Positions 10,537 to 33,465 of a stretch of DNA of 33,586 nt are shown here, piece by piece (position 1 is the first letter of the stretch; each line of letters begins with the position of its first letter). The notes below the pieces were generated by a model, which was given only the letters and a program-made list of their open reading frames with translations, was not told where the DNA came from and ran no database searches. The DNA comes from Bacteroidetes bacterium GWA2_31_9b (GTDB lineage: Bacteria > Bacteroidota > Bacteroidia > Bacteroidales > UBA12077). A program made the position numbers and the translations under genes. The DNA is taken from contig MENE01000037.1 of the NCBI GenBank assembly GCA_001769005.1, forward strand, positions 1 to 33,586. Direction: 5' to 3'.

Positions 10537-10561
10537 TAGGATTACGTTTATATTTGATTTC

Positions 10562-11221: not shown

Positions 11222-11376
11222 TTTCAATTAGAGATCATTCATTATTAAAAATACTTCTTTGTTAACTGATTTAAACTTATTTCTAACTATTTAAATAAAA
11301 ATTAAATAGTGACTCAAAGAATTAGTAAAAATTCAGAATCTATTTTCATTTAATACATATTTAATTCTAGTGTTAT

Positions 11377-11406
11377 TACGTAGGTAATATTACCTACGTA
11401 TTTTTT
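11377..11406 (+). terminator. Intrinsic terminator after the NarL-type regulator
   Basis: Perfect 24-nt palindrome tacgtaggtaat/attacctacgta (11377-11400), followed directly by tttttt. Confidence 0.6.
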
Positions 11407-11490
11407 ATGTCAAAACACGAAAACTTGCTCTAAAATCAGGGCGTTATCCAAATTATATTTACTAATGAATAATTTTTAAATACAGAAATT

Positions 11491-11895: not shown

Positions 11896-11937
11896 TTAAT
11901 ATCAAAAGAATTAAAAAAAATTAAAGATGGAGATATT

Positions 11938-12435: not shown

Positions 12436-12513
12436 GCATTTGATAATATGTAAATAACAAATTCAAAGAGTGGTATTAATAAACAGAAAAATTTACACAT
12501 AAAACATATAGTT

Positions 12514-14556: not shown

Positions 14557-14579
14557 TAAATTATAATTTATAGGTTAAA

Positions 14580-14620
14580 GAAAAGCCTTGCAAATATTTG
14601 TTTGTAAGGCTTTTCTATTA
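14580..14620 (+). terminator. Intrinsic terminator after the MCP gene
   Basis: 10-bp stem gaaaagcctt / aaggcttttc (14580-14589 / 14607-14616), with a T-rich tail. Confidence 0.6.
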
Positions 14621-14924
14621 GTAAATTTGTTTCAGTATTGGTTTAAGGTACATTAGTAAAACAGGAAAATATTCATTTTTTATATTCAAAATCGGAATAC
14701 AAGGATAAAAACAGGCTGAAATAGTATTTGGGAAAACGATTTGACTTGTTTACTACCGATGTAAAATATTTGCAAATAGTGCAAAAAGCAACACGTAGGG
14801 TTGAGATAAGCCTATTTAAGGAGCAAACCAAAAATAACACTTTATAAATTTAAGAATCAATAAAAAATATGGATAGTTAAATCGAATTGAGTAATATTGA
14901 AAACTTAAAAAATCAATTAGTATA

Positions 14925-15680
14925 ATGAGAACGTTTTATTTATTTTTCTGCTTAATTATTGGTATTTCTGGATACGCCCAAAAAATGAATAAGCTTGGAA
15001 AAATTGTTATAGATGAGCTTCCAAAAGCTCCGGATTATTGGGTAATTAAAAATGGGCTTAATTACCGTATGGTATATAAAGACACTATAAATCTGGAAGG
15101 TAATGTATTTTACAAATTACCTAACGCGATTATTGCAAGCGAAGAAACTGCCGATGACCGACCTGATAAAATAAATTATTATGATACAACAGGCAGGTTA
15201 ATCGTTTCAGTTATTAGTCCACGAATCATCAATTTAAAAATTTCAGAAAAAGGAAATTATGCTGCTTTTTACAACCAAAAAAATATTATCCAAATTAATC
15301 TGCATAATTTTAGTCTGGATACACTTTTTGGATCATACTCATTTGCATTTACAAACGACGAAAAACTAGTCTATTATGATTCTGAGGAGAGAGTTGTAGT
15401 ATATGACAACCAGGTTTATTCATTTGAAGATTTTCCAATCATGTTTCTTGACTTCAATTCAACTATACTTGTTTTTACATCTGAAAAAATATTAAAACTC
15501 ACCGGTTCTGGCTTTATTCCTGTGCGCGAATTTCATGGTTCTTTTTATGATGCTATGATCATAAATCATATTCTATATTTTGTAGATAAATCAGTAAAAC
15601 GAAACGATATTACTTACAGGCTATATAAAACAACTGATTTAGTAAATTATTCAATTGTTGAAATATCGGACTATGAATAG
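14925..15680 (+). CDS. Hypothetical secreted protein
   Basis: 251 aa with a signal peptide ending GYA-QK. I recognise no motif. Confidence 0.55.
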   Translation: MRTFYLFFCLIIGISGYAQKMNKLGKIVIDELPKAPDYWVIKNGLNYRMVYKDTINLEGNVFYKLPNAIIASEETADDRPDKINYYDTTGRLIVSVISPRIINLKISEKGNYAAFYNQKNIIQINLHNFSLDTLFGSYSFAFTNDEKLVYYDSEERVVVYDNQVYSFEDFPIMFLDFNSTILVFTSEKILKLTGSGFIPVREFHGSFYDAMIINHILYFVDKSVKRNDITYRLYKTTDLVNYSIVEISDYE

Positions 15681-16751: not shown

Positions 16752-17888
16752 ATGAGAAAATTAGTATTGTTATTTGTTGCATCAACTATAATTATTTCGT
16801 GCCAATCGGAACGAAGTAAAAAAGAATCAGAAATAAGAAATGAACTGAAAAAAATTATTAACGAAGTTGGTTTACCCGGAATAAATCTGGCAATTTCAAT
16901 GCCCAATAATGAACTCTGGACAATATCCGAAGGGTATTCCGATAAAGAAAAACAATCGATAATGAAACCTGAAGATGTTATGTTTTCAGGCAGTACAGGC
17001 AAAACCTTTTGTGCTGCACTTATTTTGCAATTACAAGACGAAGGCAAATTAAATGTTGATGATTCACTTTCGAAATATTTTGGCAATGAAGAATGGTTCG
17101 GTAAAATTGCCAATTCACGTGATTTAACTTTACGAATGTTACTAAATCATACATCAGGGCTTGAACGGTATGAATTTGACGATTCGATATCCATAAAATT
17201 GAAAGAAAATCCAGATAAAATCTGGACAGGAGTGGAGCGATTATCGCATATATTTGGTAAGCCCGCATTACACGAAGCAGGTAACGGTTGGGCATATTCC
17301 GATACCAATTATATTCTTTTGGGTATGTTAATTGAGAAACTTATTGAAAATGAATATTATGCCGAACTTGAAAAGAGATTTTTTCAGCCACTTAAATTGG
17401 AGAATACTTTTCCCGGAAATAACCGAGAGATAAAAGGTTTAATTACTGGTTACTCTATTTATTCAAAAGAATTTGCAGTACCTGAAAAAGTATTACTTGA
17501 AAATGGGAAATTTGCATTTAATCCTCAAATGGAATTCACTGGTGGAGGAATAGCTTGTACAGCATCTGATTTAGCAAAATGGGGTAAGTTGTATTATGGA
17601 GGTAAGGTCTTTTCACAAAATGCATATAAGTTAATGATTACTCCTTCATTCCAAAAAACAAATTTACAGGATAATGCAAAATATGGAATGGCTTGTTTTG
17701 TATGGAACGATGATGGTAGAATTTCTTTTGGCCATACAGGTTTTTTTCCGGGTTATGTAACTATTGTTGAATATATTCCTGGAAATAATATCTGCATTGC
17801 TATGCAATGGAATACCGATAAAAAAAACCCAGAAAAGTCTTTACATATGTACCTTGAAAACATTAAGGAAATAGTAAAGAAACATTAA
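16752..17888 (+). CDS. Serine hydrolase, beta-lactamase family (probable lipoprotein)
   Basis: Lipobox IISC. S-x-x-K motif SGSTGKTF, plus LLNHTSGL and YSDTNY motifs typical of the family. Confidence 0.8.
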   Translation: MRKLVLLFVASTIIISCQSERSKKESEIRNELKKIINEVGLPGINLAISMPNNELWTISEGYSDKEKQSIMKPEDVMFSGSTGKTFCAALILQLQDEGKLNVDDSLSKYFGNEEWFGKIANSRDLTLRMLLNHTSGLERYEFDDSISIKLKENPDKIWTGVERLSHIFGKPALHEAGNGWAYSDTNYILLGMLIEKLIENEYYAELEKRFFQPLKLENTFPGNNREIKGLITGYSIYSKEFAVPEKVLLENGKFAFNPQMEFTGGGIACTASDLAKWGKLYYGGKVFSQNAYKLMITPSFQKTNLQDNAKYGMACFVWNDDGRISFGHTGFFPGYVTIVEYIPGNNICIAMQWNTDKKNPEKSLHMYLENIKEIVKKH

Positions 17889-17962: not shown

Positions 17963-18646
17963 CTATTGAACATTAAAACAAAATCCAATACCTCGTATCG
18001 ACTTTATATTAATTGATTTGTCGTTTATTAAATACTTTCTTAATCTACTTATAAAAACATCCATACTCCTTCCGGAAAAATAATCATTACCTCCCCATAT
18101 TTCGTTTAAAATATCACTTCGTTTTATTACTTTGTTGGAGTTTTTAATAAAGTATTGTAATACAAGTGCTTCTTTTTCGGTGAGTTGTATTTTGTTTTCT
18201 TTGTAAATGAGTAAAAAGTTAGAAATATCAAATTTATATTCACCTATACAAATCGAATCATTTGTATTGATAATTTTTCTTTTTAAAATATTATTTATTC
18301 TAAGTATAAGCTCTTCTGGTTCAAATGGTTTGCATATATAATCATCGGCGCCAAGTTTAAGCCCTTTTATTCTATCCTCTATCATTATTCTAGCTGTAAG
18401 AAAAATAAAAGGTATACTATTATTGTTGATTAAAATATTTTCAGCGAGTGTAAATCCATCCATTTCTGGCATCATTATATCAAAAATACATAGATCAAAC
18501 TTGTTTTCCTTAAAAGCATTTAATCCAATTAATCCATCTCTACATAACGTTACTTCAAAATTATTTAAAACAAGATATTGTTTTAAAACGTTTCCAAGAT
18601 CAATATCATCTTCTACCAATAAGATGTTTTTTATAAACTTATCCAT
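17963..18646 (-). CDS. Response regulator, OmpR/PhoB winged-helix family
   Basis: 227 aa. Receiver motifs LLVEDD, LCIFDIMMPEMDG, FLTA, YICKPF. C-terminal LTEKEALVLQYF ... VFISRLRKYL ... IRGIGF matches a trans_reg_C-type domain. Confidence 0.85.
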   Translation of the reverse strand: MDKFIKNILLVEDDIDLGNVLKQYLVLNNFEVTLCRDGLIGLNAFKENKFDLCIFDIMMPEMDGFTLAENILINNNSIPFIFLTARIMIEDRIKGLKLGADDYICKPFEPEELILRINNILKRKIINTNDSICIGEYKFDISNFLLIYKENKIQLTEKEALVLQYFIKNSNKVIKRSDILNEIWGGNDYFSGRSMDVFISRLRKYLINDKSINIKSIRGIGFCFNVQ

Positions 18647-18731: not shown

Positions 18732-20117
18732 TTAATTGTTTTGTAGTTTTATGTTTCTTTTTAATTTGAGTGTAAAAGTTGTACCAATGTTAATCTCGCT
18801 ATTAACTGAAATTTTCCATTTATGAGATTTAGTAATTAAATAAACATAGTATAATCCAAGGCCAGTTCCTTTTATCTTATGAATATTCCCTGTTGGTACT
18901 CTATAAAACTGTTTAAATAAATGTTTTTGATACTCTTTACTAATGCCTATGCCATTGTCTGATAAAATAATTTCAAAATACTTTTTACTCTCTAATGTTG
19001 TTATATTTAGTTCAATAATGTCTTTAGAATATTTAAATGCGTTATCTAGTAAGTTTGTAAGTATCATTTCAAAATAAAAAGGATCGGCAAGTATTTCTGG
19101 AGTTGAAATAAATAAACTTGTATTAATTGTAAAAGATTTCTGATGATTTCTTATCTTAAATTCATCAACAACCTTATTTATTAAATCATGTAAATTAATC
19201 TTTTTATAGTTTAATTGAATAATTCCATTTCTAAGAGCAGATAAATTTAATACATTATCTACCAGATTAATTAGTCTTCTAGATTGATTATCAATAGATT
19301 TTACCAGATTTAATAATTCTGTTTTTTGATTTAAAATGATTGGGTTTGATAATGTTCTTGATGCAATTGATATGGTTGTTATAGGTGTTTGAATTTCATG
19401 AGTTATATTATTTATAAAATCTGTTTTCATTTTATCATGTACTTCTTGTCTTTTAATTGTTTTTATTGTATAAATCACAATAATTATAAAAACAATAAGA
19501 ATAATGAAAGCACCCCAAATTACATTTTTTATACTTCTTAAATAATAATTCCTTAACGAACCATATTTTATATATAGATTAATTTGAAAATTGTAGTTAT
19601 TTCCATTAAAATATAAATAATTAGCAGGTAAAATATCAGTAATAATGCTGCTATCTCCAAATAAATATATAACTGATTCTTTTAATTTGTCATCATCTGC
19701 TATTGTTATTATTTTATTAGAACCATTAATATTGAACTTATTTAAGCTAATTAAGGTATTAAATGGAACATTAATTTTGTATGATAAAAAAGATTCTTTT
19801 AAATTTTCATTAATTTTTTTATAAACATTGAACGTATTTTTTAATGTATCAATCAATTTTTTTTTAGAATCTTCTTTAAGTTCACCATTTAAATCCATAC
19901 TATTCTTATCTTTTAGTAGGATGTCACATACTTGTTCTAACTTTTCATCATTAACCTTATATTTATAAAATTCAGAAGCACTTAAATAATCTGTTGAATA
20001 TTTAAATTTATTGCTTTGTAGCTGTAGTGTATTAAAAAGGAGGTATCCCAGTATTATAAATATCAAGATACAAGATAAAATAAGAAAGAAGATTGAAAGT
20101 TTAATTCTATTTATCAT
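18732..20117 (-). CDS. Sensor histidine kinase (two TM segments, ~165-aa extracytoplasmic loop)
   Basis: 461 aa. H-box FINNITHEIQTPIT, N-box LTNLLDNAFKYS, G-boxes DNGIGI and GTGLGLYY. It lies upstream of, and is co-oriented with, the OmpR-type regulator. Confidence 0.85.
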   Translation of the reverse strand: MINRIKLSIFFLILSCILIFIILGYLLFNTLQLQSNKFKYSTDYLSASEFYKYKVNDEKLEQVCDILLKDKNSMDLNGELKEDSKKKLIDTLKNTFNVYKKINENLKESFLSYKINVPFNTLISLNKFNINGSNKIITIADDDKLKESVIYLFGDSSIITDILPANYLYFNGNNYNFQINLYIKYGSLRNYYLRSIKNVIWGAFIILIVFIIIVIYTIKTIKRQEVHDKMKTDFINNITHEIQTPITTISIASRTLSNPIILNQKTELLNLVKSIDNQSRRLINLVDNVLNLSALRNGIIQLNYKKINLHDLINKVVDEFKIRNHQKSFTINTSLFISTPEILADPFYFEMILTNLLDNAFKYSKDIIELNITTLESKKYFEIILSDNGIGISKEYQKHLFKQFYRVPTGNIHKIKGTGLGLYYVYLITKSHKWKISVNSEINIGTTFTLKLKRNIKLQNN

Positions 20118-20289: not shown

Positions 20290-20832
20290 ATGAAACTAAG
20301 TATATGGATCATTTTTTTTCTTGCAATGTTTTTAACAACATTAAAATCTTATAAAGTGTTATCTCAGAATCATATATGTGTACAAACAAATGGAAATATT
20401 AATGATGCTATTGATATTAACCTAAATTGGTTTAAGCAATTATCAGAAAATTATAATGAATCAACTTTTGTTGTATATTATGGTTTAGGAAGTCATTCCT
20501 ATCACTTTACAGCTTCAGACAATGATTTTGTGAAAGAAAATAGCGATTATTCAGATAATAATGATTATCAATTCGGTCAAGGTTCTGTTTTAATGGATAA
20601 TGGAAGAAAGCTTGATGTTAAATATTTATATAATAAAGAAAAATTTAAAGTTGAATTAGCTCGCTATTTAAAGAATGGAGAATTAGACACATCTTTTTTT
20701 AAAAACGGGAGAATAACAAAAACAGTTTATAAAAAAGACAAAAAGGGAAGTATGATCGTATTTAAATCAGATGAAAATTTGGTAATAGCCGGTTATACAG
20801 AATCAGACTCAACCTTTATTTATATTAAATAA
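20290..20832 (+). CDS. Hypothetical secreted protein
   Basis: 180 aa with an N-terminal signal peptide (IWIIFFLAMFLTTL). NGELDTSFFKNGRI resembles a single propeller-type repeat. Its 3' end is duplicated at 21200..21274. Confidence 0.55.
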   Translation: MKLSIWIIFFLAMFLTTLKSYKVLSQNHICVQTNGNINDAIDINLNWFKQLSENYNESTFVVYYGLGSHSYHFTASDNDFVKENSDYSDNNDYQFGQGSVLMDNGRKLDVKYLYNKEKFKVELARYLKNGELDTSFFKNGRITKTVYKKDKKGSMIVFKSDENLVIAGYTESDSTFIYIK

Positions 20833-20871
20833 CCAATATAAAAACAATCTATTTAACCAAAATCTAAATTT

Positions 20872-21045
20872 ATGTACGATCAAAGAAGCCACATTATTTG
20901 TGGCCCAGCTGCAGTTATAAATAAAGAACTAGCAATGTTAGCTTGTACTGAATATGCATGTCATTGTCAATGTAATCAAGGGAGCGGAAGTGGTGCTGGT
21001 GTTGAAGGTGGGCATGTTGTAATTTTCAAGCCTTCGTTGTTATAG
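20872..21045 (+). CDS. Putative RiPP precursor peptide A1 (57 aa), absent from the ORF track
   Basis: Hand translation: MYDQRSHIICGPAAVINKELAMLACTEYACHCQCNQGSGSGAGVEGGHVVIFKPSLL. It shares the leader-like motif, the CxCQC core, the Gly-rich linker and the hydrophobic tail with A2 and A3. Confidence 0.7.
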   Translation: MYDQRSHIICGPAAVINKELAMLACTEYACHCQCNQGSGSGAGVEGGHVVIFKPSLL

Positions 21046-21199
21046 GTAAAGATTTTTGATTCATTACTTTTCAATCGAAATAGCTATAATTAATTCTAAA
21101 AATAGATTAAAGAGAGAATTGTTAACCGGTTGAAAAGTTTATCATCATAAAAAATAAAACCAATTTGGTTTATTAAGAAACTCGAAAGTAAGTTTGATT

Positions 21200-21274
21200 A
21201 TGTTTAAATCAGATGAAAATTTGATTCTAGCCGGCTATGCAGAATCATGCTTCACTTTTGTGTACATAAAGTAG
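21200..21274 (+). pseudogene. Duplicated 3' fragment of the 20290..20832 gene
   Basis: It encodes MFKSDENLILAGYAESCFTFVYIK*, compared with VFKSDENLVIAGYTESDSTFIYIK* at the end of 20290..20832. Like the parent, it is followed about 40 nt later by a precursor gene. Confidence 0.6.
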
Positions 21275-21318
21275 CTATTGGGTTGCTTTATATTAATTAT
21301 TAATCTTAATTTAAAATC

Positions 21319-21489
21319 ATGAAAGAACAAAAAAAACATTTTATTTGCGGTCCAACAGCGGTTGTAAATAAAGAATTAGCAATGATGGCAGCATCAAGTT
21401 GTGCTTGTGCTTGCCAGTGTGGTTCACAAGTTGGAACTGGTAATGGTGGTGGATCAGGAGGTTCATTATTAGATTTACTTTCTTTTTAA
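21319..21489 (+). CDS. Putative RiPP precursor peptide A2 (56 aa), absent from the ORF track
   Basis: Hand translation: MKEQKKHFICGPTAVVNKELAMMAASSCACACQCGSQVGTGNGGGSGGSLLDLLSF. Confidence 0.75.
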   Translation: MKEQKKHFICGPTAVVNKELAMMAASSCACACQCGSQVGTGNGGGSGGSLLDLLSF

Positions 21490-21522
21490 TTAATTATTAT
21501 TAAACATTAAAAAAACAAAAAA

Positions 21523-21711
21523 ATGAAATCAGTAAAACATGTAATTAGTGGACCATCTTCAGTGGTTCAAAAAGAACTGGCTACTTTAGCAGCAGCTGGT
21601 TGTGGATGTCAATGTGGTTGCGGAAGTGCATCAGGTAGTGGTGGTGGAACTGGCGGCGGTGGCGGCGGCGGTGGCGTTGGCGATTTAATAAGCTTGCTTT
21701 CTTTATTATAA
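21523..21711 (+). CDS. Putative RiPP precursor peptide A3 (62 aa)
   Basis: ORF track: MKSVKHVISGPSSVVQKELATLAAAGCGCQCGCGSASGSGGGTGGGGGGGGVGDLISLLSLL. It starts 33 nt after A2 and has the same architecture as A1 and A2. Confidence 0.8.
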   Translation: MKSVKHVISGPSSVVQKELATLAAAGCGCQCGCGSASGSGGGTGGGGGGGGVGDLISLLSLL

Positions 21712-21725
21712 GAAAACAATAAATG

Positions 21726-21764
21726 GAGATGTATGCATTAATTTATTTAATGCATACAGATCTC
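21726..21764 (+). terminator. Stem-loop after the precursor genes (possible leaky terminator or attenuator)
   Basis: 12-bp perfect stem tgtatgcattaa / ttaatgcataca with a 5-nt loop, extendable with one bulge (gagat...agatctc). The downstream T-tract is weak. Confidence 0.45.
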
Positions 21765-21842
21765 TCTTTAATTATTAAGCGGGTATTTTGTAATATTTTA
21801 TTTGTTAAAGTTCAAAATATCAATTTTTCATATTAAGCTTAA

Positions 21843-22001
21843 AAAACAAAAAAGAATACACATAATCATATTATTTGTGGATTATCAGCAGTTGTCAAAA
21901 AAGCCAGTTTAGATACTATAGGATGCACTTTTCCATGCAGTTGTGGAATTGAATTAGGCGCTGAATATTCATATGGGGGTGGAGTAGCAATTACAAATTA
22001 A
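21843..22001 (+). pseudogene. Decayed fourth precursor-like copy (no start codon)
   Basis: The in-frame translation after the stop at 21840 is KTKKNTHNHIICGLSAVVKKASLDTIGCTFPCSCGIELGAEYSYGGGVAITN*. It retains H.IICG..AV and a C.....C.C segment. The position aligned to the A3 ATG reads aaaaaacaaaaaaGAA, and the KELA motif, Gly linker and Leu-rich tail are lost. Confidence 0.45.
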
Positions 22002-22038
22002 TTTTAAAATCGCTTTTAATCTTTTAAGATAAATGAGA

Positions 22039-22075
22039 TTTTGTATGAATCAAATATTGCTTGATGCATACAAAA
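22039..22075 (+). terminator. Second stem-loop related to the one at 21726
   Basis: tttgtatgaatcaa / ttgatgcatacaaa forms 14 bp with one mismatch and a 7-nt loop. It shares the gtatg.at...atgcatac core with the 21726 hairpin. Confidence 0.4.
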
Positions 22076-22151
22076 ACTAAATAGAAATAATAAAAATTTG
22101 GATTTCATAATTTTTGATTATCATTTAAAAATACTTACGTTAAACTTAACC

Positions 22152-23471
22152 ATGGATACACTAAAAAATTTTGAGAAAAGTTTTCTTATTGAAGAAATTA
22201 ACGAAAATAAATATATAATATATAATGTTGATAGACATATACCGATTATTGTTGATAAAACAGGGAAAAAGTTTTTTGATATTATTTTAAATAATAGAGA
22301 TTTAGAATCATGTAAAAAGAGCCTTTTGAAAAATGAATTCGATGATTTTGTACTATTTTTAAAAGAAATTGGCAATTTACAAGTATTGGATACATCACCT
22401 TCAGAAACGATTAAACCAAAAAACAACCCGCCAAAAACAGCTTATTTACACCTTACTTATAAATGTAATTTAAATTGTAATTATTGTTACAATAAAGATG
22501 TACGAAATAAATTTGTTGATCTCCCATTTGAAAAATGGAAAAATATAATTGACAAATTATTACCTACAACAAATTATTTTATTTTAACAGGTGGAGAACC
22601 ATTTCTATTTAAAGATCTAAAAAACATAATAAACTATATTCATTCCTATAATTCTGAATATCAAGTTGAGATATTATCAAACGGAATGATTAACTTTTCG
22701 GAATATTCAGATTCAAATGAAGTTTTTAACAATATTCATAGAATTACATTTAGTTGCGATAATTTTAAATCAAATAATCAGGTAAGAAAAGGATTTGAAA
22801 TAGAAGAATTTAAAAAGAATCTGGAATGGATTATTAAAAACGGATATGCAGAAAAAGTTGGTTTAAGTTCAGTTTATTATAAAGAAAATCTTGAGGGAAC
22901 TATTGAAGTTCAACAATATTGCAAAAGTCACTGCATGCAACATAGAAGAGTTCTAGTTATTCCTAATAATCGTGATGAAATCAATATTATGCCATCTTTA
23001 GAATCATTTCTAGAATCTCTAGGTTCTAACGAAGCAATTTATGACTTAACTACTTTTTTTAAGCGATTAAATTGTGGAGCTGGGGTTGGACTTATTAGTA
23101 TCGACCCTGAAGGAAATTGTTACCCTTGCCAGAATTTACATTATGATAAATTTAATTGTGGTAATATATTAAATAAATCATACAAAGAAATTCTTGATTC
23201 AGAAGTAATTAATCTTTTTAGATCGGATTTAATTGTTGAAAATATTTCTACCTGTAACGAATGTAAACTTAGATATATTTGTGGAGGAGGTTGCAGAGCT
23301 GCAAGCTACAGATTGGAAGGAAAAATTGATGCTTTTCCAGAAGTTATGTGTTCATATTACAAAAGCTTAGCTAAACACAAACTTATAAATGGTGTCTTTT
23401 TTACTCCCAGTGAATTATTAAATCGTAAAGATTCTATAAATAAATTAATAGAAAAAGAATTTATTATTTAA
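22152..23471 (+). CDS. Radical SAM / SPASM-domain peptide maturase with an RRE-like N-terminal domain
   Basis: CNLNCNYC (CxxxCxxC) at 22464-22487. GGEPFL SAM-binding motif. C-terminal cysteine pattern C326-x12-G-x4-C344 ... C386-x2-C389-x5-C395-x3-C399 ... C418 (ORF-track numbering). About 90 aa lie before the rSAM core. The ATG at 22152 is preferred over the track's TTG at 22098. Confidence 0.85.
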   Translation: MDTLKNFEKSFLIEEINENKYIIYNVDRHIPIIVDKTGKKFFDIILNNRDLESCKKSLLKNEFDDFVLFLKEIGNLQVLDTSPSETIKPKNNPPKTAYLHLTYKCNLNCNYCYNKDVRNKFVDLPFEKWKNIIDKLLPTTNYFILTGGEPFLFKDLKNIINYIHSYNSEYQVEILSNGMINFSEYSDSNEVFNNIHRITFSCDNFKSNNQVRKGFEIEEFKKNLEWIIKNGYAEKVGLSSVYYKENLEGTIEVQQYCKSHCMQHRRVLVIPNNRDEINIMPSLESFLESLGSNEAIYDLTTFFKRLNCGAGVGLISIDPEGNCYPCQNLHYDKFNCGNILNKSYKEILDSEVINLFRSDLIVENISTCNECKLRYICGGGCRAASYRLEGKIDAFPEVMCSYYKSLAKHKLINGVFFTPSELLNRKDSINKLIEKEFII

Positions 23472-23520
23472 TATTTTATAAAAAAAGATAAATGTTCGGG
23501 TTACTTTAATATATCAGATT

Positions 23521-25302
23521 ATGAACTTTAGTTTTAAAAATTCTTCATACAACATTGGCAAAGATAAATTTAACTGCTTGAAGCAGTATTTAATTAAGCC
23601 TAAAAAATATGCTATATGGGGAGGTGTTGCAATGATATTTAATATCCTTTTAATGCTGCCAACACCTCTTATTACAATGTATCTGATAGATCAGATTTTA
23701 CCTCAGAAGGATTTTCCGATGTTAAGTTTGGTTAGTGGATTGCTGGTAATATTTATCTTATTTAAATTTATTAGTTCATACTTTCAGAATTTATATTTTG
23801 TTAAGTTTAATGAGCTCGTAATATTTCATATTCAAATTGATTTAAACGAAAAAATACAATCTTTTACTGCCAGATATAGACAAAAACTTCAAACAGGTTA
23901 TTTAATGTCAAGAATTTCAAATGATCCCAATCGACTACATGGATTATTTGCTACTATTTTATTAACTGCTGTAAGCGATATTTTAACTTTTATTGTAGGA
24001 TTGATTATTATTTTCTTTATTCATTGGAAATTAGCTTTAGCGTCTCTTTTTATTTTGCCTTTTTTTATTTATGCAATTAATTATTTTAGTAAAAAAATCA
24101 GAGATACTGCAGAAGTAACTTATGAAGAAAGTGCACAAGTTTACAAAAAAATGCAAGAATCAATATCTTTAATTGATACATTCTTAATGTTTAATGCTCA
24201 AAAGTACGATGCAATAAAACTTGTTCAAAGAATGAGAAAATCGGTAGTTAGTTATATTCACTTATCTGTTTTGTCGAGTCTTTCAATGAATATAGCCGCT
24301 CTTATAAGTGGTATTGGACCTGTAGTTGTAATATGGTATGGAATGTATGAGATTATGAATGGGAATTTAACTTTAGGAGAATTAATTGCATTTAATGCTT
24401 TTATTGGATATCTCTTTGGTCCTGCAAACAGATTAATGAATGCAAATTCTAGTATTCAACAGTCACTCGCAGCATGGGATAGAATATATGAAATACTCAA
24501 TGAAAAGAAAAATGTACTTAAAAAATCTAAAAAAAATGTAAGAAATAAGATTCTAGGCCATGTTTCTTTCCAGAATGTAGCTTTTTCGTACGATGATCAA
24601 CCAGTATTAAAAAATATTAATTTAGAAATTGCTCCAAAAAGTATATTGGGAATTGTTGGTGAAAGTGGCTGCGGAAAGAGTACTCTGGTTAGCCTAATAC
24701 CTGTTTTAAATGAAAAAAATGAAGGTGAAATATTTATTGATGATTTACAAGTAGGTGATTATAACGTAAATACCTTAAGAGATCAAATTGCTTATGTAAA
24801 TCAGGAACCATTACTCTTCAATAATACAATACTAAATAATATTAAACTTGGTAATAAAAATGCGAGTCGTGATGAAATTATTCATGCTGCACATTTAGCC
24901 AAAATTAGTGATTTTATAGAATCTTTACCTGATGGATATGATTCAATAGTTGATGAAAGAGGATTAAATATGTCTGTAGGACAAAAACAACGAATTGCTA
25001 TTGCAAGGGCAATACTTAAGAAACCATCAATTTTAATTTTGGATGAATTCACATCAAACCTAGATTCAGAGTCGGAGTATGATTTGTTCGAAACACTTAA
25101 AGATTTCATGAAAGAACGAACTACAATTATTGTTGCTCACAGATTATCAACACTTAAATATGCAAATAAAATTGTTGTTCTTGATAAAGGGTGTATTGTA
25201 GAAGAAGGTAGCCATCAAGATCTTATGAAATTGGAAGGTTCATACAGCAACCTTTTTAATAAACAACACGCTAATGGCGAAATAAAAGTCCTTGTAAATT
25301 AA
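23521..25302 (+). CDS. ABC exporter, fused TMD-NBD half-transporter (no C39 peptidase domain)
   Basis: 593 aa. Six predicted TM segments begin around aa 30. Walker A GESGCGKST, signature MSVGQKQRIAIARA, Walker B ILILDEFTS, H-loop VAHRLST. Confidence 0.9.
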   Translation: MNFSFKNSSYNIGKDKFNCLKQYLIKPKKYAIWGGVAMIFNILLMLPTPLITMYLIDQILPQKDFPMLSLVSGLLVIFILFKFISSYFQNLYFVKFNELVIFHIQIDLNEKIQSFTARYRQKLQTGYLMSRISNDPNRLHGLFATILLTAVSDILTFIVGLIIIFFIHWKLALASLFILPFFIYAINYFSKKIRDTAEVTYEESAQVYKKMQESISLIDTFLMFNAQKYDAIKLVQRMRKSVVSYIHLSVLSSLSMNIAALISGIGPVVVIWYGMYEIMNGNLTLGELIAFNAFIGYLFGPANRLMNANSSIQQSLAAWDRIYEILNEKKNVLKKSKKNVRNKILGHVSFQNVAFSYDDQPVLKNINLEIAPKSILGIVGESGCGKSTLVSLIPVLNEKNEGEIFIDDLQVGDYNVNTLRDQIAYVNQEPLLFNNTILNNIKLGNKNASRDEIIHAAHLAKISDFIESLPDGYDSIVDERGLNMSVGQKQRIAIARAILKKPSILILDEFTSNLDSESEYDLFETLKDFMKERTTIIVAHRLSTLKYANKIVVLDKGCIVEEGSHQDLMKLEGSYSNLFNKQHANGEIKVLVN

Positions 25303-25357
25303 TAGTTCATTTTTCACTTAAATTGATTTAAATAATTATAACTCAAATTATGTAATT

Positions 25358-27751
25358 ATGAAATTCTCTTTGAAATTTTTATTAAGAAGATTATTTAGAA
25401 ATAAACTAACATCATTAATTAATATTTTTGGTTTAACAATTGGTATTGTTTGTTCATTTTTTATTTTAATATACATATCATATGAATTAAGCTTTGATAA
25501 GTTTCATTCAAATTATAAGCATATTTATAGAATAACAGAAGAAAGAACACTAACAGAGCAACCAAGAACTTTAGCAGTTACTTGCCCTCCAATTGCAGGA
25601 ATAATATCAAACGAGTTTCCTGAAATTAAAACTGTTCGCATACTGCCATATGAGGCCAATATATTTTTAGAAAATGAAATAAATTTTAAAGAAAACAAAT
25701 TCTATTTTACTGAAAATTCAATTTTTAATATTTTTGATTTCCACTTTATTGAAGGAAATAGTAAAGAAGCTCTTTCCAACCCTAATTCAATAGTTGTGTC
25801 AGAAAGTATAGCAAAAAAATATTTTGGCAATGAAAAAGCAATTGGTAGAATAATAAAACTCAATAATAAGGTTGATTTCGTTGTTACAGGAGTTGTTAAA
25901 ATTTTTTCAGGTAATTCGCATATTAAACTGGAAGTTTTAGCATCCTTAAATACCTTCTTTAACGATAAAAAACTTATGGAGTCGTGGTGGAAAACAGATT
26001 TTTATACTTATGTTTTGATCCCAGAAGCCAGGGATAATCAAAATTTCAAAGAAAGCATCCCCAACATTATCAACAATTATATGCCTGATGCAAAAGGACA
26101 GCGAATATTTACTCTTCAGCCATTGAGGAAAATACACCTGTATTCAAATTTGGAAAATGAATTGGAGAAAAACAGCGATATAAAGTATATCTATATATTT
26201 GTTTTTATTGCCTTACTTATTATTGTTATAGTATGTTTTAATTTCATGAATTTATCCACAGCAACTTTTATGAAAGCATCAAAAGAAGTTGGTTTAAGAA
26301 AGATTTTTGGAGCAAAAAAAAGAAATTTGTCACTTTTATATTTTGGAGAATCTATATTAATCTCTTTTTTCTCTTTACTAATAGCAATAATTATTGTTGA
26401 AACAACAATTCATTTTTTTAATTCATATTTTCCTGGTATATATGAATTTTACTTTCTAAATAAATTAAAACTCTATTCGTTTTTTTTCTTTATCACTTTT
26501 TTAATAGGAATATTTGCTGGAAGTTACCCTGCAATTTATTTGCCATCTCTAAAACCCGTAGATGCACTAAAAAAATTAAATAGAATTGGAAAAAGTAATA
26601 TTATAACCAGGAATGTTCTTATTGTTTGCCAATTTGTAATTGCCTGTGTAATGATTTCTTCAACATTTATTATTTATAAACAGTCACAATATATAAAAAA
26701 GCTGGATTTAGGTTTTGATAAGCAAAACCTATTAGTTCTTAATATCCCAAAGGAATTAAATTCAAAATATGAGCTTTATAAAGATTTACTAAAAGGAAAC
26801 AATAAAGTTATTGATGTATGTATTTCAGGCGGGGTTCCAGGTGTGCCGTTAACATCAGAATTTCCATATCAATTAGATAATGTTAACTATAAAGGTAGTT
26901 TGCCTAACATATTAACATTTATGATCGATTATGATTTTATTCAGACCTATGGTCTTCAAATAATTAAAGGTCGTGGATACGAAAAAAATAGTGAATTGGA
27001 CAAAGATAAATCATTTATATTAAATCAAAAGGCTGTAAATACTTTTGGTTGGGATGATCCTATTGGTAAATCGTTTACAATTCATCAATTTAATGGGAAA
27101 GAAATGGAGACAAAAAAAGGAACTGTTATTGGAGTAGTTAAGGATTTTAATTTTAAGTCTCTTAATACCTCAATTGAACCTCTTGTTTTAGAGATAGCAC
27201 CATCTGATATGTTTTATAACTCACTATCAATAAAGTATAAAAATGGAGCAGATCAGGAAGTTTTAAGTATTTCCAAAAAACAATTGAAAGAAATGGGAAT
27301 AGACGAACCAATTGAATATTATTTTCTAAGCGATAAGTTACAGTCAGATATGAAGAAACAAGAAAATCTAAAAAGCTTGATGTATTTGTTTACAATCTTA
27401 ATTGTAATATTAGCTTGCCTCGGATTATTTGGTTTAGTATCTTTTAGTCTTAATCAAAGATCTAAAGAAATAGGTATAAGGAAAGTTCATGGTAGTAATA
27501 CCTTTAATATTGTTTTTCTATTTTATAAACAATACTTGAAATTAATAATCTATTCAAACATAATTGCTATTCCTTTTACCTTTTTTATAATAAATAAATG
27601 GATGCAATATTTTGCTTATAAAACAACAGTTAATTGGACAGTATTTATAGTTTCTTTTATAATGCTCTTTATATTGACATTTATAACTGTCACTGTTATT
27701 ACCATTCGAAATGCTAGAATAAACCCAGCAATTACTTTAAAATACGAATAA
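25358..27751 (+). CDS. ABC transporter permease, double FtsX / MacB-like family
   Basis: 797 aa. It has the same architecture and the same termini (FRNK..SLINIFGLTIG ... NPAITLKYE) as 3885..6284. No MacB-type ATPase gene lies adjacent. Confidence 0.85.
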   Translation: MKFSLKFLLRRLFRNKLTSLINIFGLTIGIVCSFFILIYISYELSFDKFHSNYKHIYRITEERTLTEQPRTLAVTCPPIAGIISNEFPEIKTVRILPYEANIFLENEINFKENKFYFTENSIFNIFDFHFIEGNSKEALSNPNSIVVSESIAKKYFGNEKAIGRIIKLNNKVDFVVTGVVKIFSGNSHIKLEVLASLNTFFNDKKLMESWWKTDFYTYVLIPEARDNQNFKESIPNIINNYMPDAKGQRIFTLQPLRKIHLYSNLENELEKNSDIKYIYIFVFIALLIIVIVCFNFMNLSTATFMKASKEVGLRKIFGAKKRNLSLLYFGESILISFFSLLIAIIIVETTIHFFNSYFPGIYEFYFLNKLKLYSFFFFITFLIGIFAGSYPAIYLPSLKPVDALKKLNRIGKSNIITRNVLIVCQFVIACVMISSTFIIYKQSQYIKKLDLGFDKQNLLVLNIPKELNSKYELYKDLLKGNNKVIDVCISGGVPGVPLTSEFPYQLDNVNYKGSLPNILTFMIDYDFIQTYGLQIIKGRGYEKNSELDKDKSFILNQKAVNTFGWDDPIGKSFTIHQFNGKEMETKKGTVIGVVKDFNFKSLNTSIEPLVLEIAPSDMFYNSLSIKYKNGADQEVLSISKKQLKEMGIDEPIEYYFLSDKLQSDMKKQENLKSLMYLFTILIVILACLGLFGLVSFSLNQRSKEIGIRKVHGSNTFNIVFLFYKQYLKLIIYSNIIAIPFTFFIINKWMQYFAYKTTVNWTVFIVSFIMLFILTFITVTVITIRNARINPAITLKYE

Positions 27752-27770
27752 TACTTTAAACTTATAAAAA

Positions 27771-29723
27771 ATGCAAAACTTAAAAAGACTAAAACCATAT
27801 AAATCTGAAAGACCTTTAAGAACAATTAATAAAATAAGAAATATTCTTGGTGAACATGATATTTTTACAATTGAAAGCCATATAATAGATGATGCCGATT
27901 TTCATTCCTGTCATGTAACTTTTGACAATAGCACTTTAGCTTTACTTGGAATAGCAACCAATGGAAAAGGTTTGAGTAGAGAATATTCTTTAGCAAGCGG
28001 ATATGCAGAATTCCTCGAAAGAATCCAAAATAATGCAAAAATTCATTTGCAGAATTATCAGGCTACCAAACGCTATTTGGAAAACGAAAATATGAATAAT
28101 GCTTTTCATAGAAAATTAAAACAAGAAGATTTGGTTCAGGATTTTAGATTCGCTCCTGACGAAAAATTTTTAAACATAGAAAAAGCGGTAAATGAGCAAC
28201 CAGATATTTATCAAAAAATTTTAAACTTGAATGATAATAAAGAAATCATTCAATTTATTGAAGAAGAACTATGTACCAATGAGATTGAAACTGTTCCTTT
28301 TTATGAGGTAAATAGTAATGAAATTAAAGAATTACCAATTCGATTAATTCAGAATGTTTGTGGAACAAATGGGATGTGTTCTGGTAACAACAAGATTGAA
28401 GCAATTTTACAAGGTATATCTGAAATTTTTGAACGATATGCAATAAGAGAAATATATTTAAAAGAGCTTTCACTTCCAACAATCCCACTTGAAGTATTTA
28501 TGGGAAATGAAATTTATGAGAGAATAAAAAAATTAGAATTAGAGAAAAGTTATACTTTCATTATCAAAGATTGTTCTTTAGGAATAGGTTTGCCTGTTTT
28601 AGGTGCACTTATTATTGATCATTCAAATAGCACATATACACTACATTTAGGTGCTGACCCAAGCCCAATAACTGCACTTGAAAGATGTTTTACTGAAGTT
28701 TATCAAGGGGGAAAAAATGCACGATTTAAGCCTGTTCATTACAATACTAAAGATATTTTCAGCTTTTTAGGAGCTAATAATCAAAAATCCCGAGAATGGA
28801 ATAAGTTAAATCAAATGTATAAAACCATTAAACAAGGTACGGGGTATTGGCCTGATTCAATATTTCTAAACAAAGAATCATATTCTTTTAATGGATTTGA
28901 AAACCCGGTATCTTATAGTAATGAAAAAGATATGAATTATTTTCTAAATATTATTGAAAGAAACAATTACAAACTTTTTATTAGAGATCATTCATTTTTG
29001 GGTTTTGACTCTTTTTACATTTATATTCCTGAATTAAGCCATTTATATAATATTGCAGATAATAATGCCTGCAAAATTGATTATAAACTAAAGCAGAAGT
29101 TTACTATTCTTGCTAACCTAAATAAAGCAAATGAAAATGATATTAAACAGGTTGTTGAACTAATTGAAGAAGATTACAATCATCCAAGATTCAGTGAAAA
29201 AAATATTAGACAGTACTTTTTGGCAAATCTAAATTTTGAATTTGTTGACATGTCACCTGAACTTTTCTTAGTGATGTTAAATTACAGAATTCAAAATTTT
29301 GATAAAGCATTTTATTTTTTAAATCAACACCTGATTAATTGTAAATCTGAAAATAATATTAATTATGCTTATTTATATGCTATATCAGAATATTTAAAAT
29401 TAAAAATTGAGAAAAACTCTAACGAAGATATTTTTAATAGATTGAGAATCCAATTTACTGAAAATATGGCTAATGATGTAATAAATGATATGGATAAAAA
29501 TGAAGAAATATTTAAATATCATAGACTTCCTTCATGTTTCGATTGCGATAATTGTCCAGTTTCTAATGAATGTAAATTCTTTGATCTTTTAAAGTGTTAT
29601 AAACCAATAAAAACAGCCTATAAGCTAAATGTTATTGATCAGAATGACTTGTCGAAATTATTTTATAACACGAATGATATTAAAACAAATAATTTATTCA
29701 AAGCAGAGTTTTCATCTAATTAA
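27771..29723 (+). CDS. YcaO-domain protein, stand-alone, with an extended C-terminal region
   Basis: 650 aa. YcaO signatures: NGKGLSREYSLASGYAEFLERIQN, GTNGMCSGNNKIEAILQGISEIFERYA, LHLGADPSPITALERCFTEVYQ. The C-terminal ~250 aa is helical-repeat-like and carries a Cys cluster. It starts 19 nt after the permease stop. Confidence 0.8.
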   Translation: MQNLKRLKPYKSERPLRTINKIRNILGEHDIFTIESHIIDDADFHSCHVTFDNSTLALLGIATNGKGLSREYSLASGYAEFLERIQNNAKIHLQNYQATKRYLENENMNNAFHRKLKQEDLVQDFRFAPDEKFLNIEKAVNEQPDIYQKILNLNDNKEIIQFIEEELCTNEIETVPFYEVNSNEIKELPIRLIQNVCGTNGMCSGNNKIEAILQGISEIFERYAIREIYLKELSLPTIPLEVFMGNEIYERIKKLELEKSYTFIIKDCSLGIGLPVLGALIIDHSNSTYTLHLGADPSPITALERCFTEVYQGGKNARFKPVHYNTKDIFSFLGANNQKSREWNKLNQMYKTIKQGTGYWPDSIFLNKESYSFNGFENPVSYSNEKDMNYFLNIIERNNYKLFIRDHSFLGFDSFYIYIPELSHLYNIADNNACKIDYKLKQKFTILANLNKANENDIKQVVELIEEDYNHPRFSEKNIRQYFLANLNFEFVDMSPELFLVMLNYRIQNFDKAFYFLNQHLINCKSENNINYAYLYAISEYLKLKIEKNSNEDIFNRLRIQFTENMANDVINDMDKNEEIFKYHRLPSCFDCDNCPVSNECKFFDLLKCYKPIKTAYKLNVIDQNDLSKLFYNTNDIKTNNLFKAEFSSN

Positions 29724-29794: not shown

Positions 29795-29888
29795 CTTAAT
29801 AATTGGGATGGGTTAAGTAGTTTAAAAATAAAGTTTTCGAGCTGAGAATCGTTTCTCAAATTAGCTCTCTCAAAGCTATGCAACTTGT

Positions 29889-30005
29889 GTTGATTATGTT
29901 ACTTGAAATGATATCTGTATAACCATGCAGTGGAATACCGATAAAAAGAACCCAGATAAATCATTTCACAAATATCTTGACAATATTAAACTATTTGTAA
30001 AATAG
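29889..30005 (+). pseudogene. 3' remnant of a serine-hydrolase gene paralogous to 16752..17888
   Basis: It translates to VDYVT*NDICITMQWNTDKKNPDKSFHKYLDNIKLFVK*, compared with GYVTIVEYIPGNNICIAMQWNTDKKNPEKSLHMYLENIKEIVKKH. By hand alignment, 24 of 32 residues and 73 of 96 nt are identical. It has an internal stop, a deletion, and no upstream coding body. Confidence 0.6.
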
Positions 30006-31578: not shown

Positions 31579-33465
31579 ATGAGAAGACTGTTAATTATTA
31601 CACTTATGTTGATTTGTGTGAGTTCCTTTGCTCAGAAATCAACAAAACAGGAAGTAAAAGAAAATCCATACAAATACACATGGAATTTAACCGATGTTTA
31701 TCCTAACTGGGATGCATGGCAAAAAGATCTTGAATATGTTAATTCTCAGATTCCAAAATATCTTGAGTTTAAAGGTCGTTTAGGCGAGAGTGTACAAACA
31801 ATGCTCGATTTCCAGAAATTTTCTGAAGAAGTTTCGAAAATCAGTTCCAAATTATACATCTATGCTTCTTTAAGTCAGGATGTTGATGGTAAAAATCCAA
31901 TTTATATTACTAAGCTGCAGCAATTACAAACGGTAGGTATAGAAATGAGTAGAAATACTGCTTGGATTCAACCCGAATTAGCTACAATTCCAAAAGAGAA
32001 AATAGAAGGTTGGATGAAAGAGAATAAAGATCTGGCAATTTACAACCACGATTTTGAAAGCTTTTATCGTACTCTGGAACACATTATTGATGAACAAACT
32101 CAAAAAATAATTAGTTATTACAGTCGTGCATTAGGAGCAGCAAGTAATGCTTATGGCTCTCTTTCAACTGCCGATATGGAGTATCATAATGTAACTTTAT
32201 CAACCGGCGAAGAAATTGTAACAAGTCCTGCAAATGCATCAAAAGTTTATTCTGGTAATCCAAATCAGAACGATCGAAAAATAACAGCGAATGCTCGTGA
32301 AGCAGTGTATGCAAAAAATAAAAATACCTATGCCGACCTTTGGATGGGTGTTGCACAAAATCGCTGGGCAAGTTCACAATTACAAGGTTATGAGTCTGGT
32401 CTTGATGCAGTTTTACAATCGAATAATATTCCGAAAGATGTGTATATGAATTTAATCGATGTTGCTAGTAACAATACTGCATCTTTATTAAAATACCGAG
32501 AATTACGTAAAAAAGCTTTAGGACTTGAGAAATATTATTTTTCAGACGAATCGTTCGAATTGGTTGATTTTATGAAAAATTACTCTTGGGAAGAAGCTGT
32601 TGATATGGTTCAGAAATGCTTAAAGCCAATGGGTGACGAATACAATACTCTTTTAAATACTGCTATTCAGGGTGGTTGGATTGATGTTTACGAAAAACCT
32701 GGCAAACGAACAGGTGCTTATAGCTGGTCCATTTATGGTGTGCATCCATATATACTAATGAACTGGGATGAGAGTCGCGACAATGTGTACACACTTGCTC
32801 ACGAATTAGGTCACTCTATGCATAGTATGTTAAGTAGCAAATATCAACCATATACTTATTCAAGTTATGCGTCAATGGTTGCTGAAACTGCTTCTACTTT
32901 CAACGAGAACATGTTACTTGATTATATGATAAAAAACTCAACCGATCCGAATGAAAAGATTGCTTTATTGGTTCAGGCTATCGATAATATTTCAGGTACT
33001 TTCTACCGCCAATCTCAATTTGCTGAGTTCGAATACAAAATGTATACTATGATAGAAAAAGATGAGCCTATGAATGCTGATATAATTGCTAATTTGTATT
33101 TAGAAATTGATAAAAAATACAATGGCGATATTTTTGACCGTTCAGAAGATTTTGCTTACAGTTGGCCAAGAGTTCATCATTTCTTCGGATATTTCTATTA
33201 TGTGTATAATTATGCAGTTTCATTTTCTGCATCAAGCAGTTTATTTAACCAGATAGCTTTGGCCGAAACTCCTGAAGCTTCAAAAGCTGCCCAGGAAAAA
33301 TACCTTACTTTATTAAAGTCAGGAGGAAGTGATTATCCTGTTGAATTGCTTAAAAAAGCAGGTGTTGATTTAAATACCAAAGAGCCATTTTTAGCTGTTA
33401 TTAAACGTATGGATCAGTTGGTTAATCAACTAGAGGTTGCTTTAAAAGAAGCTGGAAAGATCTAA
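31579..33465 (+). CDS. pepF: Oligoendopeptidase F (M3B family), secreted
   Basis: 628 aa with a signal peptide ending SFA-QK. Zinc motif HELGHSMH, with downstream E in AETASTFNE. Length and layout are typical of PepF. Confidence 0.85.
   Translation: MRRLLIITLMLICVSSFAQKSTKQEVKENPYKYTWNLTDVYPNWDAWQKDLEYVNSQIPKYLEFKGRLGESVQTMLDFQKFSEEVSKISSKLYIYASLSQDVDGKNPIYITKLQQLQTVGIEMSRNTAWIQPELATIPKEKIEGWMKENKDLAIYNHDFESFYRTLEHIIDEQTQKIISYYSRALGAASNAYGSLSTADMEYHNVTLSTGEEIVTSPANASKVYSGNPNQNDRKITANAREAVYAKNKNTYADLWMGVAQNRWASSQLQGYESGLDAVLQSNNIPKDVYMNLIDVASNNTASLLKYRELRKKALGLEKYYFSDESFELVDFMKNYSWEEAVDMVQKCLKPMGDEYNTLLNTAIQGGWIDVYEKPGKRTGAYSWSIYGVHPYILMNWDESRDNVYTLAHELGHSMHSMLSSKYQPYTYSSYASMVAETASTFNENMLLDYMIKNSTDPNEKIALLVQAIDNISGTFYRQSQFAEFEYKMYTMIEKDEPMNADIIANLYLEIDKKYNGDIFDRSEDFAYSWPRVHHFFGYFYYVYNYAVSFSASSSLFNQIALAETPEASKAAQEKYLTLLKSGGSDYPVELLKKAGVDLNTKEPFLAVIKRMDQLVNQLEVALKEAGKI

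Follow-up and report, generated by a model that had tools for sequence, protein, structure and literature searches.

A candidate hybrid RiPP operon joining a predicted Cys-Gly hairpin sactipeptide module to an ItfB-like YcaO

A gene cluster for peptides that are made by the ribosome and modified after translation (RiPPs) is found in contig MENE01000037.1 of Bacteroidetes bacterium GWA2_31_9b, the whole 33,586 nt of which were analysed and are called the window, with all coordinates given as window positions. Genes for three precursor peptides (A1-A3) are followed by those for a radical S-adenosylmethionine (rSAM) protein with a SPASM domain, an ATP-binding cassette (ABC) exporter, an FtsX-type permease and a stand-alone YcaO enzyme, and the open reading frame (ORF) listing places all of them on the plus strand. 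It is held with moderate confidence that an acquired 12.1-kb island carries a hybrid RiPP operon, in which a sactipeptide module and a YcaO/ABC/FtsX module act on the same peptides. The locus proves to be real and coherent, without amounting to a new class of RiPP, since both kinds of enzyme and their co-occurrence are already known. What looks new is a four-rung sactipeptide family that is uncharacterised and uncurated, its variant without a double-glycine (GG) leader or a C39 peptidase domain, and the junction of that variant with a YcaO, so far seen in one lineage.

A preliminary description, made from the letters of the window, had proposed a co-oriented RiPP operon with multiple precursors, an rSAM-SPASM protein, exporters and a stand-alone YcaO, and this stands. 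The gene order, strand, coordinates and motifs that it gave are all correct by the ORF listing and Pfam, as are the gaps of 49, 55 and 19 nt that separate the rSAM, ABC, FtsX and YcaO genes. The elements of the operon are these:

20872-21045, plus strand: precursor A1, 57 amino acids, core CHCQC-NQGS-GSGAG, tail ...IFKPSLL
21319-21489, plus strand: precursor A2 (P0242), 56 amino acids, core CACACQC-GSQV-GTGNGGG, tail ...SLLDLLSF
21523-21711, plus strand: precursor A3 (P0244), 62 amino acids, core CGCQCGC-GSAS-GSGGGTG, tail ...GDLISLLSLL
21843-22001, plus strand: decayed fourth precursor copy, in frame (repeat family D2)
22152-23471, plus strand: radical SAM/SPASM maturase, predicted sactisynthase (Pfam Radical_SAM and SPASM)
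23521-25302, plus strand: ABC exporter half-transporter, a transmembrane domain followed by a nucleotide-binding domain (ABC_membrane and ABC_tran), without a C39 domain
25358-27751, plus strand: duplicated MacB_PCD/FtsX permease, ADOP/DarB-like by domain matches
27771-29723, plus strand: stand-alone YcaO of the E. coli/ItfB type (PF02624, E = 3.8e-43)

The precursor peptides and their radical SAM maturase

The core of the precursors can be written as CxCxC(xC)-x4-GxGxG(xG), which A1, A2 and A3 all fit. The fourth Cys/Gly pair is present in A2 and A3; A1 has three Cys and carries Glu in the fourth Gly slot. The decayed copy, which had been noticed in the preliminary description, retains the segment HIICG.SAVVKK, has no ATG, GTG or TTG start codon and has lost the CxCxC/GxGxG register. 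That description had also likened the core to microcin B17, a resemblance that proves to be one of composition only; the Cys/Gly register matches the motif of StsA (PMC10288494). StsA belongs to the StsA/StsB(/StsC) system of Streptomyces sparsogenes, which makes hairpin sactipeptides by joining Cys sulfur to Gly alpha-carbon (Precord et al. 2023, PMC10288494). In StsA, CxCxCx4GxGxG is converted by StsB to the nested sactionines C2-G15, C4-G13 and C6-G11, and the links were shown by mass spectrometry, alkylation, NaBD4 desulfurisation and mutagenesis (PMC10288494). BlaA/BlaB is mentioned in the same paper as a further source of Cys-Gly hairpin sactipeptides (He et al. 2022, cited in PMC10288494).

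The precursors of the window belong to a family that is found well beyond this contig. About 45 homologues of the rSAM were collected at 32-42% identity, together with one fragment (locus L172) at 61%, and peptides of the precursor family co-occur with such an rSAM in 11 further independent loci. Homologues of A1-A3 lie upstream of rSAM homologues in L004, L006/L007, L008/L009, L011 and L012, the last of which is Prevotella corporis DSM 18810, a cultured strain, and L172 has two peptides of the family. The relatives are mostly Bacteroidales or Cloacimonadota metagenome-assembled genomes. A profile search with the precursors returned about twenty further family peptides, and an rSAM profile scan of a genome collection returned about six true family members along with many distant SPASM enzymes. 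With the peptides and the rSAM, all Pfam and NCBIfam models stay below their cut-offs, and none covers the four-rung family.

Of the 26 family peptides, 21 fit the register CxCxCxC-x4-GxGxGxG. Counted from the last Cys, positions +5, +7, +9 and +11 are Gly in 85% of cases, compared with 23-58% at the neighbouring positions, and many of the GG-type relatives end one residue past the fourth Gly. For the peptides of L006 and L008, a loop of three or five residues is needed to bring them into the Gly register. The motif CxCxCxC is equally conserved in relatives without any YcaO; together with the StsA register, this makes the Cys residues most likely sactionine donors rather than azoline precursors. 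The family motif offers a structural prediction, namely that CxCxCxC-x4-GxGxGxG gives four nested sactionines.

In the relatives with genomic context, the peptides have an N-terminal GG-type leader and are in each case followed by an ABC exporter with a C39 peptidase. A1, of which a near-identical database variant (P0241) exists, has no GG leader, and the profile search found four more GG-leader-less peptides (two in L172, P0247 and P0249), all on contigs of no more than 1.7 kb. Peptides of this type start just before the segment H-x-I-[CS]-G-P-x-x-V-x-x-K-E-L-A, and all seven of them have a hydrophobic C-terminal residue. In the window, A2 ends in Leu-Ser-Phe and A1 and A3 in Leu-Leu, and Trp is absent from all three. 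A sizeable Bacteroidales family with GG leaders, encoded beside an rSAM and a C39 exporter, is represented by L012 (1120-1350), L011 (9588-9824) and P0245-P0264; its sequences stop one residue beyond CxCxCxC-x4-GxGxGxG, and a minimal four-rung sactipeptide is thereby predicted for a cultured strain.

Enzymes of the rSAM-SPASM type are the usual maturases for RiPPs with thioether or carbon-carbon cross-links. The ORF of the window enzyme spans 22098-23471 with an alternative TTG start at 22098, and the database form begins with the ATG at 22152 and has 439 residues. The CxxxCxxC motif is at 22464-22487, and seven or eight SPASM cysteines are at 23073-23351. An AlphaFold2 model (mean predicted local distance difference test score of 86.9) has a full SPASM domain and, at residues 11-75, an N-terminal unit of three strands and three helices (beta3-alpha3), which is read from the model as a fused RiPP recognition element (RRE). 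Among solved structures the model best matches the thioether-forming CteB, over its full length, with a template modelling (TM) score of 0.66-0.69. The StsB family is the best NCBIfam match both for the window rSAM and for its homologue in L008. The residues close to the catalytic site are provisionally placed, by motif landmarks and by the alignment to CteB and not by the StsB sequence, at Y113, T146, S176, S201, Q327 and N328, of which three of six (positions 1, 2 and 4, that is, the family-invariant Y113, T146 and S201) are the same as in StsB. The StsB residues are Y113, T147, I174, S199, K338 and L339 (PMC10288494).

On this basis the rSAM is likely to make hairpin sactipeptides, with three nested sactionines predicted for A1 and four each for A2 and A3. 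A different rSAM chemistry, be it beta- or gamma-thioethers to the N-terminal segment, a carbon-carbon cross-link or epimerisation, is quite unlikely. It draws support from the distance of the enzyme to characterised rSAMs, for which the top NCBIfam scores are close together (StsB 85, CbpB 77 and WgkB 76 bits), from the functional polyphyly of SPASM enzymes (PMC10288494) and from the altered loop lengths needed for L006 and L008. It does not sit well with the periodic conservation of Gly in exact mirror register with Cys, with peptides that stop right after the fourth Gly, with the covariation in A1 of Cys number and in-register Gly, or with a best structural match that forms thioethers.

Set beside the Sts system, the predicted sactipeptide module shares the CxCxC-x4-GxGxG core, extended in most members of the window family by a fourth Cys/Gly rung. 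Both systems have an rSAM/SPASM enzyme that depends on an RRE, which is fused here and is the discrete protein StsC in Sts. The lineage is probably of Bacteroidota type, whereas Sts is from an actinomycete. Furthermore, the relatives of the window family use GG leaders and peptidase-containing exporters, and the window locus adds a YcaO.

The YcaO and its accompanying transporters

YcaO enzymes use ATP to activate backbone amides, giving azolines, thioamides or amidines. The protein at the end of the operon has a YcaO domain, a helical C-terminal domain and a four-cysteine motif, CxxCxxCx5C (C589, C592, C595 and C601). Its ATP/Mg-binding motifs align with those of E. coli YcaO, and a catalytically intact, stand-alone enzyme is supported. 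The model fold matches 4Q86 over the full length, and E. coli YcaO is the closest solved relative by both sequence and fold. Compared with E. coli YcaO (4Q84-4Q86), the TM score is 0.66/0.74 and the identity 19-20%, with a YcaO domain and a helical, tetratricopeptide repeat-like C-terminal domain in both; the window enzyme, which carries the four-Cys motif, differs in its isoelectric point (pI of 5.69, or 5.7 against 4.4) and its place in a RiPP operon. E. coli YcaO thioamidates the ribosomal protein uL16 (Met82) without TfuA, and YcaOs of the uL16 type are recognized by a strongly acidic pI of about 4.4 and the lack of a RiPP context (PMC13063428). The equivalog model NF040716 gives the window enzyme 153.9 bits against a cut-off of 700. 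The MusD YcaO peptidase (Zheng and Nair) was considered and set aside, as it concerns cyanobactins and the structural match, 7U58, is weak (TM about 0.4).

The closest database relatives of the YcaO are at most 41% identical. The YcaO of locus L135 is 33% identical over residues 4-630 and has the CxxCxxCx5C motif in common with it, and the four C-terminal Cys are invariant in an alignment of 35 sequences of the clade. L135 was taken to be the itf cluster on the grounds that its precursor has the C-terminus ...SPWTITF and its gene order (YcaO, peptidase-containing ABC transporter (PCAT), rSAM, TonB-like outer-membrane protein) fits the published description; the name was assigned from that description, not by accession. 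In the review passages on itf of Bacteroides, ItfA is the precursor, ItfB the YcaO, ItfD the rSAM, ItfE the PCAT and ItfF a TonB-type protein (Clark & Seyedsayamdost 2022; PMC11002830, PMC10352776). According to the same passages, ItfB converts the C-terminal Thr-Phe amide to an amidine with nitrogen from ammonium, and no E1-like, TfuA or dehydrogenase partner is named in them (PMC11002830, PMC10352776).

The preliminary description had pointed to the lack of partner genes for the YcaO, and indeed no E1/ThiF-like, TfuA, flavin mononucleotide (FMN) dehydrogenase or dedicated leader-peptidase gene is present among the window ORFs scanned or annotated. Since the characterised YcaOs of the E. coli/ItfB type, for which the literature consulted names no E1-like or TfuA partner, work as stand-alone enzymes, the missing E1, TfuA and dehydrogenase genes are explained.

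It is very improbable that the YcaO instead cyclodehydrates the core Cys to thiazolines, as in microcin B17, with the rSAM adding a separate cross-link. In favour of this, Cys, Gly and Ser abound in the core, other YcaO enzymes are able to form azolines, and there is a weak match to the SagD model of the thiazole/oxazole-modified microcins (TOMMs). That match, to TIGR03604, reaches only 42.7 bits against a cut-off of 219, and both the sequence and the fold of the enzyme assign it to the E. coli/ItfB type. Azoline-forming YcaOs have a Pro-rich C-terminus, and no proline occurs in the last 20 residues of this one. The CxCxCxC motif, moreover, persists where there is no YcaO and sits in the register of sactionine donors, and no E1/Ocin-ThiF partner or dehydrogenase is encoded by the window ORFs scanned. 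The likeness to the linear azol(in)e-containing peptide (LAP) system of microcin B17 (McbBCD) consists of a Gly/Ser/Cys-rich core and a YcaO, and the two differ in the E1-like partner and dehydrogenase that the window lacks, in the YcaO clade and in the retention of the Cys motif by relatives without a YcaO.

The wider YcaO clade was surveyed in 80 metagenome loci. RiPP-type neighbours occur in 54 of them and an rSAM in the flanks of 33; these rSAMs are mostly PapB-like, and a C39 exporter also recurs among the neighbours, as does a TonB-like outer-membrane protein. GG-leader peptides of many unrelated kinds are found near the clade YcaOs, whose substrates are very diverse, and at least 12 loci have a precursor that ends in Phe. 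No convincing peptide was found in L001 or L002, which hold the closest relatives of the window YcaO, and L090 has an unrelated GA-leader peptide. It is a possibility that the CxxCxxCx5C domain of the clade binds an Fe-S cluster, coupling the YcaO to the rSAM or supplying sulfur.

Several features of the clade were noted in passing. In one subclade (L095, L098, L126, L128, L137 and L138), two of the four C-terminal Cys have been lost (as in YFDCKNCNI); its YcaOs always occur with a PapB-like rSAM and usually also with a TonB-like outer-membrane protein and/or a PCAT, and its precursors carry ...C.GGC....A[AWY]I..., with several ending in Phe. Tandem paralogous YcaOs, each with CxxCxxCx5C, are found in L168 (three, 6530-14231) and L160 (two, 8432-12043). 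In L002, genes for a MiaB-like methylthiotransferase rSAM (13779-15032, minus strand) and a Cys-rich 70-residue ORF (15351-15563, minus strand) lie 2-3.5 kb from the 41%-identical YcaO, an arrangement reminiscent of the E. coli YcaO/RimO association.

Alignments of the ABC protein to models of peptidase-containing exporters begin at about model position 130-180, which leaves no C39 domain. It shows 42% and 36% identity to the C39-less ABCs that neighbour the two nearest YcaO relatives of known context (L001 and L002), compared with 27-33% identity to peptidase-containing exporters. In L097, a YcaO is followed by an FtsX permease that is 30% identical to the permease of the window. The likeness of the ABC to YcaO-linked, C39-less ABCs, taken with the YcaO and FtsX pair of L097, leads to the view of the operon as a fusion of two modules. 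Given that GG leader and C39 domain are both absent, the missing leader peptidase can be seen as a correlated loss and not as a gap in the pathway. The permease presumably has a role in export or self-protection.

The L097 locus (9679-14237) lacks an rSAM; besides the YcaO it encodes a GG-leader peptide (…GGEGDTAKIEPIPPKKLEEVAPPDSLHIPQ) and the FtsX permease, which is duplicated, and a C39-like fragment lies upstream. Its YcaO appears to be the sole tailoring enzyme. A second duplicated MacB_PCD/FtsX permease of the window itself, at 3885-6284 on the minus strand and outside the island, is 32% identical to the operon permease.

A proposed shared substrate for the two modules

From these elements the chemistry, the substrate and site of the YcaO, and the roles in export and regulation may be inferred as follows. 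The H-x-I-[CS]-G-P-x-x-V-x-x-K-E-L-A segment would dock on the fused RRE of the rSAM, which would then join every Cys in CxCxC(xC), across a four-residue loop, to the mirror-position Gly in GxGxG(xG) at its alpha-carbon, such that three (A1) or four (A2 and A3) nested thioether rungs result. The YcaO, with ATP, would activate one backbone amide of A1-A3, most likely in the hydrophobic C-terminal tail, and the product would most likely be an amidine (as for ItfB) or a thioamide (as for E. coli YcaO). Export of the product, or protection of the producer, may then fall to the ABC exporter and the permease. Leader cleavage would not be required, because the precursors lack the GG leader of their PCAT-linked relatives and the exporter lacks a C39 domain. 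Control of the operon probably lies with the divergent two-component system of the island.

That the YcaO modifies A1-A3 at all is rather likely, given the 19-nt gap, the shared island, the lack of another substrate candidate and the fact that the only exporter for the GG-less peptides travels with the YcaO. Much less confidence attaches to the specific chemistry suggested by analogy (an amidine, or else a thioamide, in the C-terminal tail). It is doubtful that the YcaO acts on the cross-linked, Gly-rich sactionine hairpin or its tail, which would add an amidine or thioamide to the sactipeptide backbone and involve no proteolytic step.

An unlikely alternative has the YcaO as a passenger with respect to A1-A3, such that the product is a plain sactipeptide and the YcaO has another substrate, encoded elsewhere or not recognised, or was co-inherited with the ABC and FtsX genes. 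The peptide/rSAM family occurs elsewhere without a YcaO; a YcaO and C39-less ABC occur without these peptides in L001 and L002; the YcaO and FtsX pair of L097 goes with an unrelated GG peptide; and the diversity of the clade substrates suits this explanation too. Against it stand the common strand, the 19-nt gap and the single island, in which no small-peptide candidate other than the precursors was found. In addition, precursors without the lost GG leader have no exporter other than the YcaO-linked ABC, and the tails of the GG-less peptides are hydrophobic at the end, like those of many precursors of the YcaO clade.

Several findings count against the hybrid operon as favoured here. The peptide/rSAM family has its own YcaO in none of the nine other distinct loci with usable context; the YcaO of L006 belongs to an adjacent itf-like sub-cluster, which is missing from the otherwise identical L007. 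Of the co-occurrence looked for in other neighbourhoods following the preliminary description, the pairing of rSAM and peptides is thus borne out in the 11 further loci and that of the rSAM family with a YcaO is not, and what supports a functional link between YcaO and peptides is accordingly the operon structure of a single lineage. The other GG-leader-less peptides (L172, P0247 and P0249) are on contigs too short to show a YcaO. The window precursors do not have the Ile-Thr-Phe end of ItfA, two of the three ending in Leu, and the D-L-x-S-L tail motif is also present in L008, which has no YcaO. With respect to the sactipeptide module, the rSAM is only distantly related to any characterised enzyme, with 85.3 bits against a cut-off of 625 for the curated StsB family NF045574, and positions 3, 5 and 6 near the catalytic site are unlike StsB when mapped by landmarks and not by alignment to the StsB sequence.

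A known system close to the hybrid operon is itf. In each of the two RiPP operons, the neighbours of an rSAM-SPASM enzyme and an ABC exporter include a YcaO that is stand-alone and belongs to the one clade. The window rSAM is similar to that of itf (L135) in the SPASM region only (26% over 103 residues), and the window precursors are unrelated to ItfA, with no Trp/Ile pair and no Ile-Thr-Phe end. The window lacks the GG leader, the C39 domain and the TonB-type outer-membrane protein of itf, for which no gene is found in the window, and has an FtsX permease instead.

The pairing of a YcaO with an rSAM as such is already described in Bacteroidota in the itf cluster and BGC6-8 (PMC11002830, PMC10352776), and it is common in the clade, an rSAM flanking the YcaO relatives in the 33 survey loci given above. 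Likewise, the precursors, which had been thought a possible undescribed class, are better placed as an uncharacterised branch of the Cys-Gly hairpin sactipeptides. In the literature searched, no description was found of a YcaO paired with a Cys-Gly hairpin sactipeptide family, nor of sactionines combined with YcaO backbone modification without leader removal. The locus can be regarded as a natural module swap, in which an ItfB-like YcaO, an FtsX permease and an ABC lacking C39 have taken the place of the GG leader and PCAT. Should the YcaO act on A1-A3, a sactipeptide would result whose backbone holds an amidine or thioamide and whose maturation includes no leader cleavage. This would be of use in RiPP engineering and in working out the substrate rules of the ItfB/E. 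coli-type YcaO clade, which is poorly understood.

The island and its surroundings

The operon is part of an island bounded by two copies of a 125-nt direct repeat, and the divergent histidine kinase and response regulator to its left and the gene remnant to its right, both of which had been reported previously, are upheld by domain matches and by the repeat, respectively. The remaining features are these:

17963-18646, minus strand: OmpR-type response regulator (Response_reg and Trans_reg_C), in the island and divergent from the operon
18732-20117, minus strand: membrane histidine kinase, partner of the response regulator (HisKA and HATPase_c)
20290-20832, plus strand: ORF for a 180-residue protein, the first gene of the plus-strand block
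21185-21273, no strand assigned: duplication scar, a 76% copy of the 3' end of the 180-residue protein gene
21730-21758, plus strand: hairpin with a 12-bp stem directly 3' of A3, resembling a terminator or attenuator and having a weak T tract, from a consensus scan only
29877-30001, plus strand: remnant (3' end) of a beta-lactamase-family gene, a direct repeat of 17754-17878 at 77% identity and the right border of the island

The left copy of the repeat (family D1), 17754-17878, is within the last part of a beta-lactamase-family gene that ends at 17888. Between the two copies are 12,123 nt with the two-component system, the 180-residue protein gene, the precursors and the four large genes. The GC content is 21-29% in the island and 30-35% outside it. 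The direct repeat and the lower GC suggest acquisition by recombination beside a homologous gene. The contig is from a groundwater metagenome and has a GC content of about 28%. The same locus is present in a second sample (variant L171, JGI 3300025308), in which a 49-bp deletion (window 21322-21370) removes the start and N-terminus of A2; the remaining 13 kb or so are 99.97-99.99% identical to the window.

The OmpR-type response regulator is the candidate regulator of the operon. A promoter scan was uninformative in this AT-rich DNA, with 81 sites against 72 expected. The 180-residue protein has, by eye, a hydrophobic, signal-peptide-like N-terminus; domain scans of it gave sub-threshold repeat matches only, and no homologue was found in the other loci examined. 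DUF5128 proteins encoded beside YcaO relatives were compared with it and have no similarity to it. Repeats at 74-76% identity (families D3 and D4) relate 20743-20831 to 21185-21273 and 20853-20942 to 21300-21389, so that A1 and A2, judged by these sequences, derive from tandem duplication of a unit comprising the tail of the 180-residue protein gene and a precursor gene.

Outside the island, an M3 oligoendopeptidase is encoded at 31579-33465. Chemotaxis-type genes adjoin the island at 11491-14556, encoding a CheY-like receiver, CheW and a methyl-accepting protein; such genes are unusual for classical Bacteroidales.

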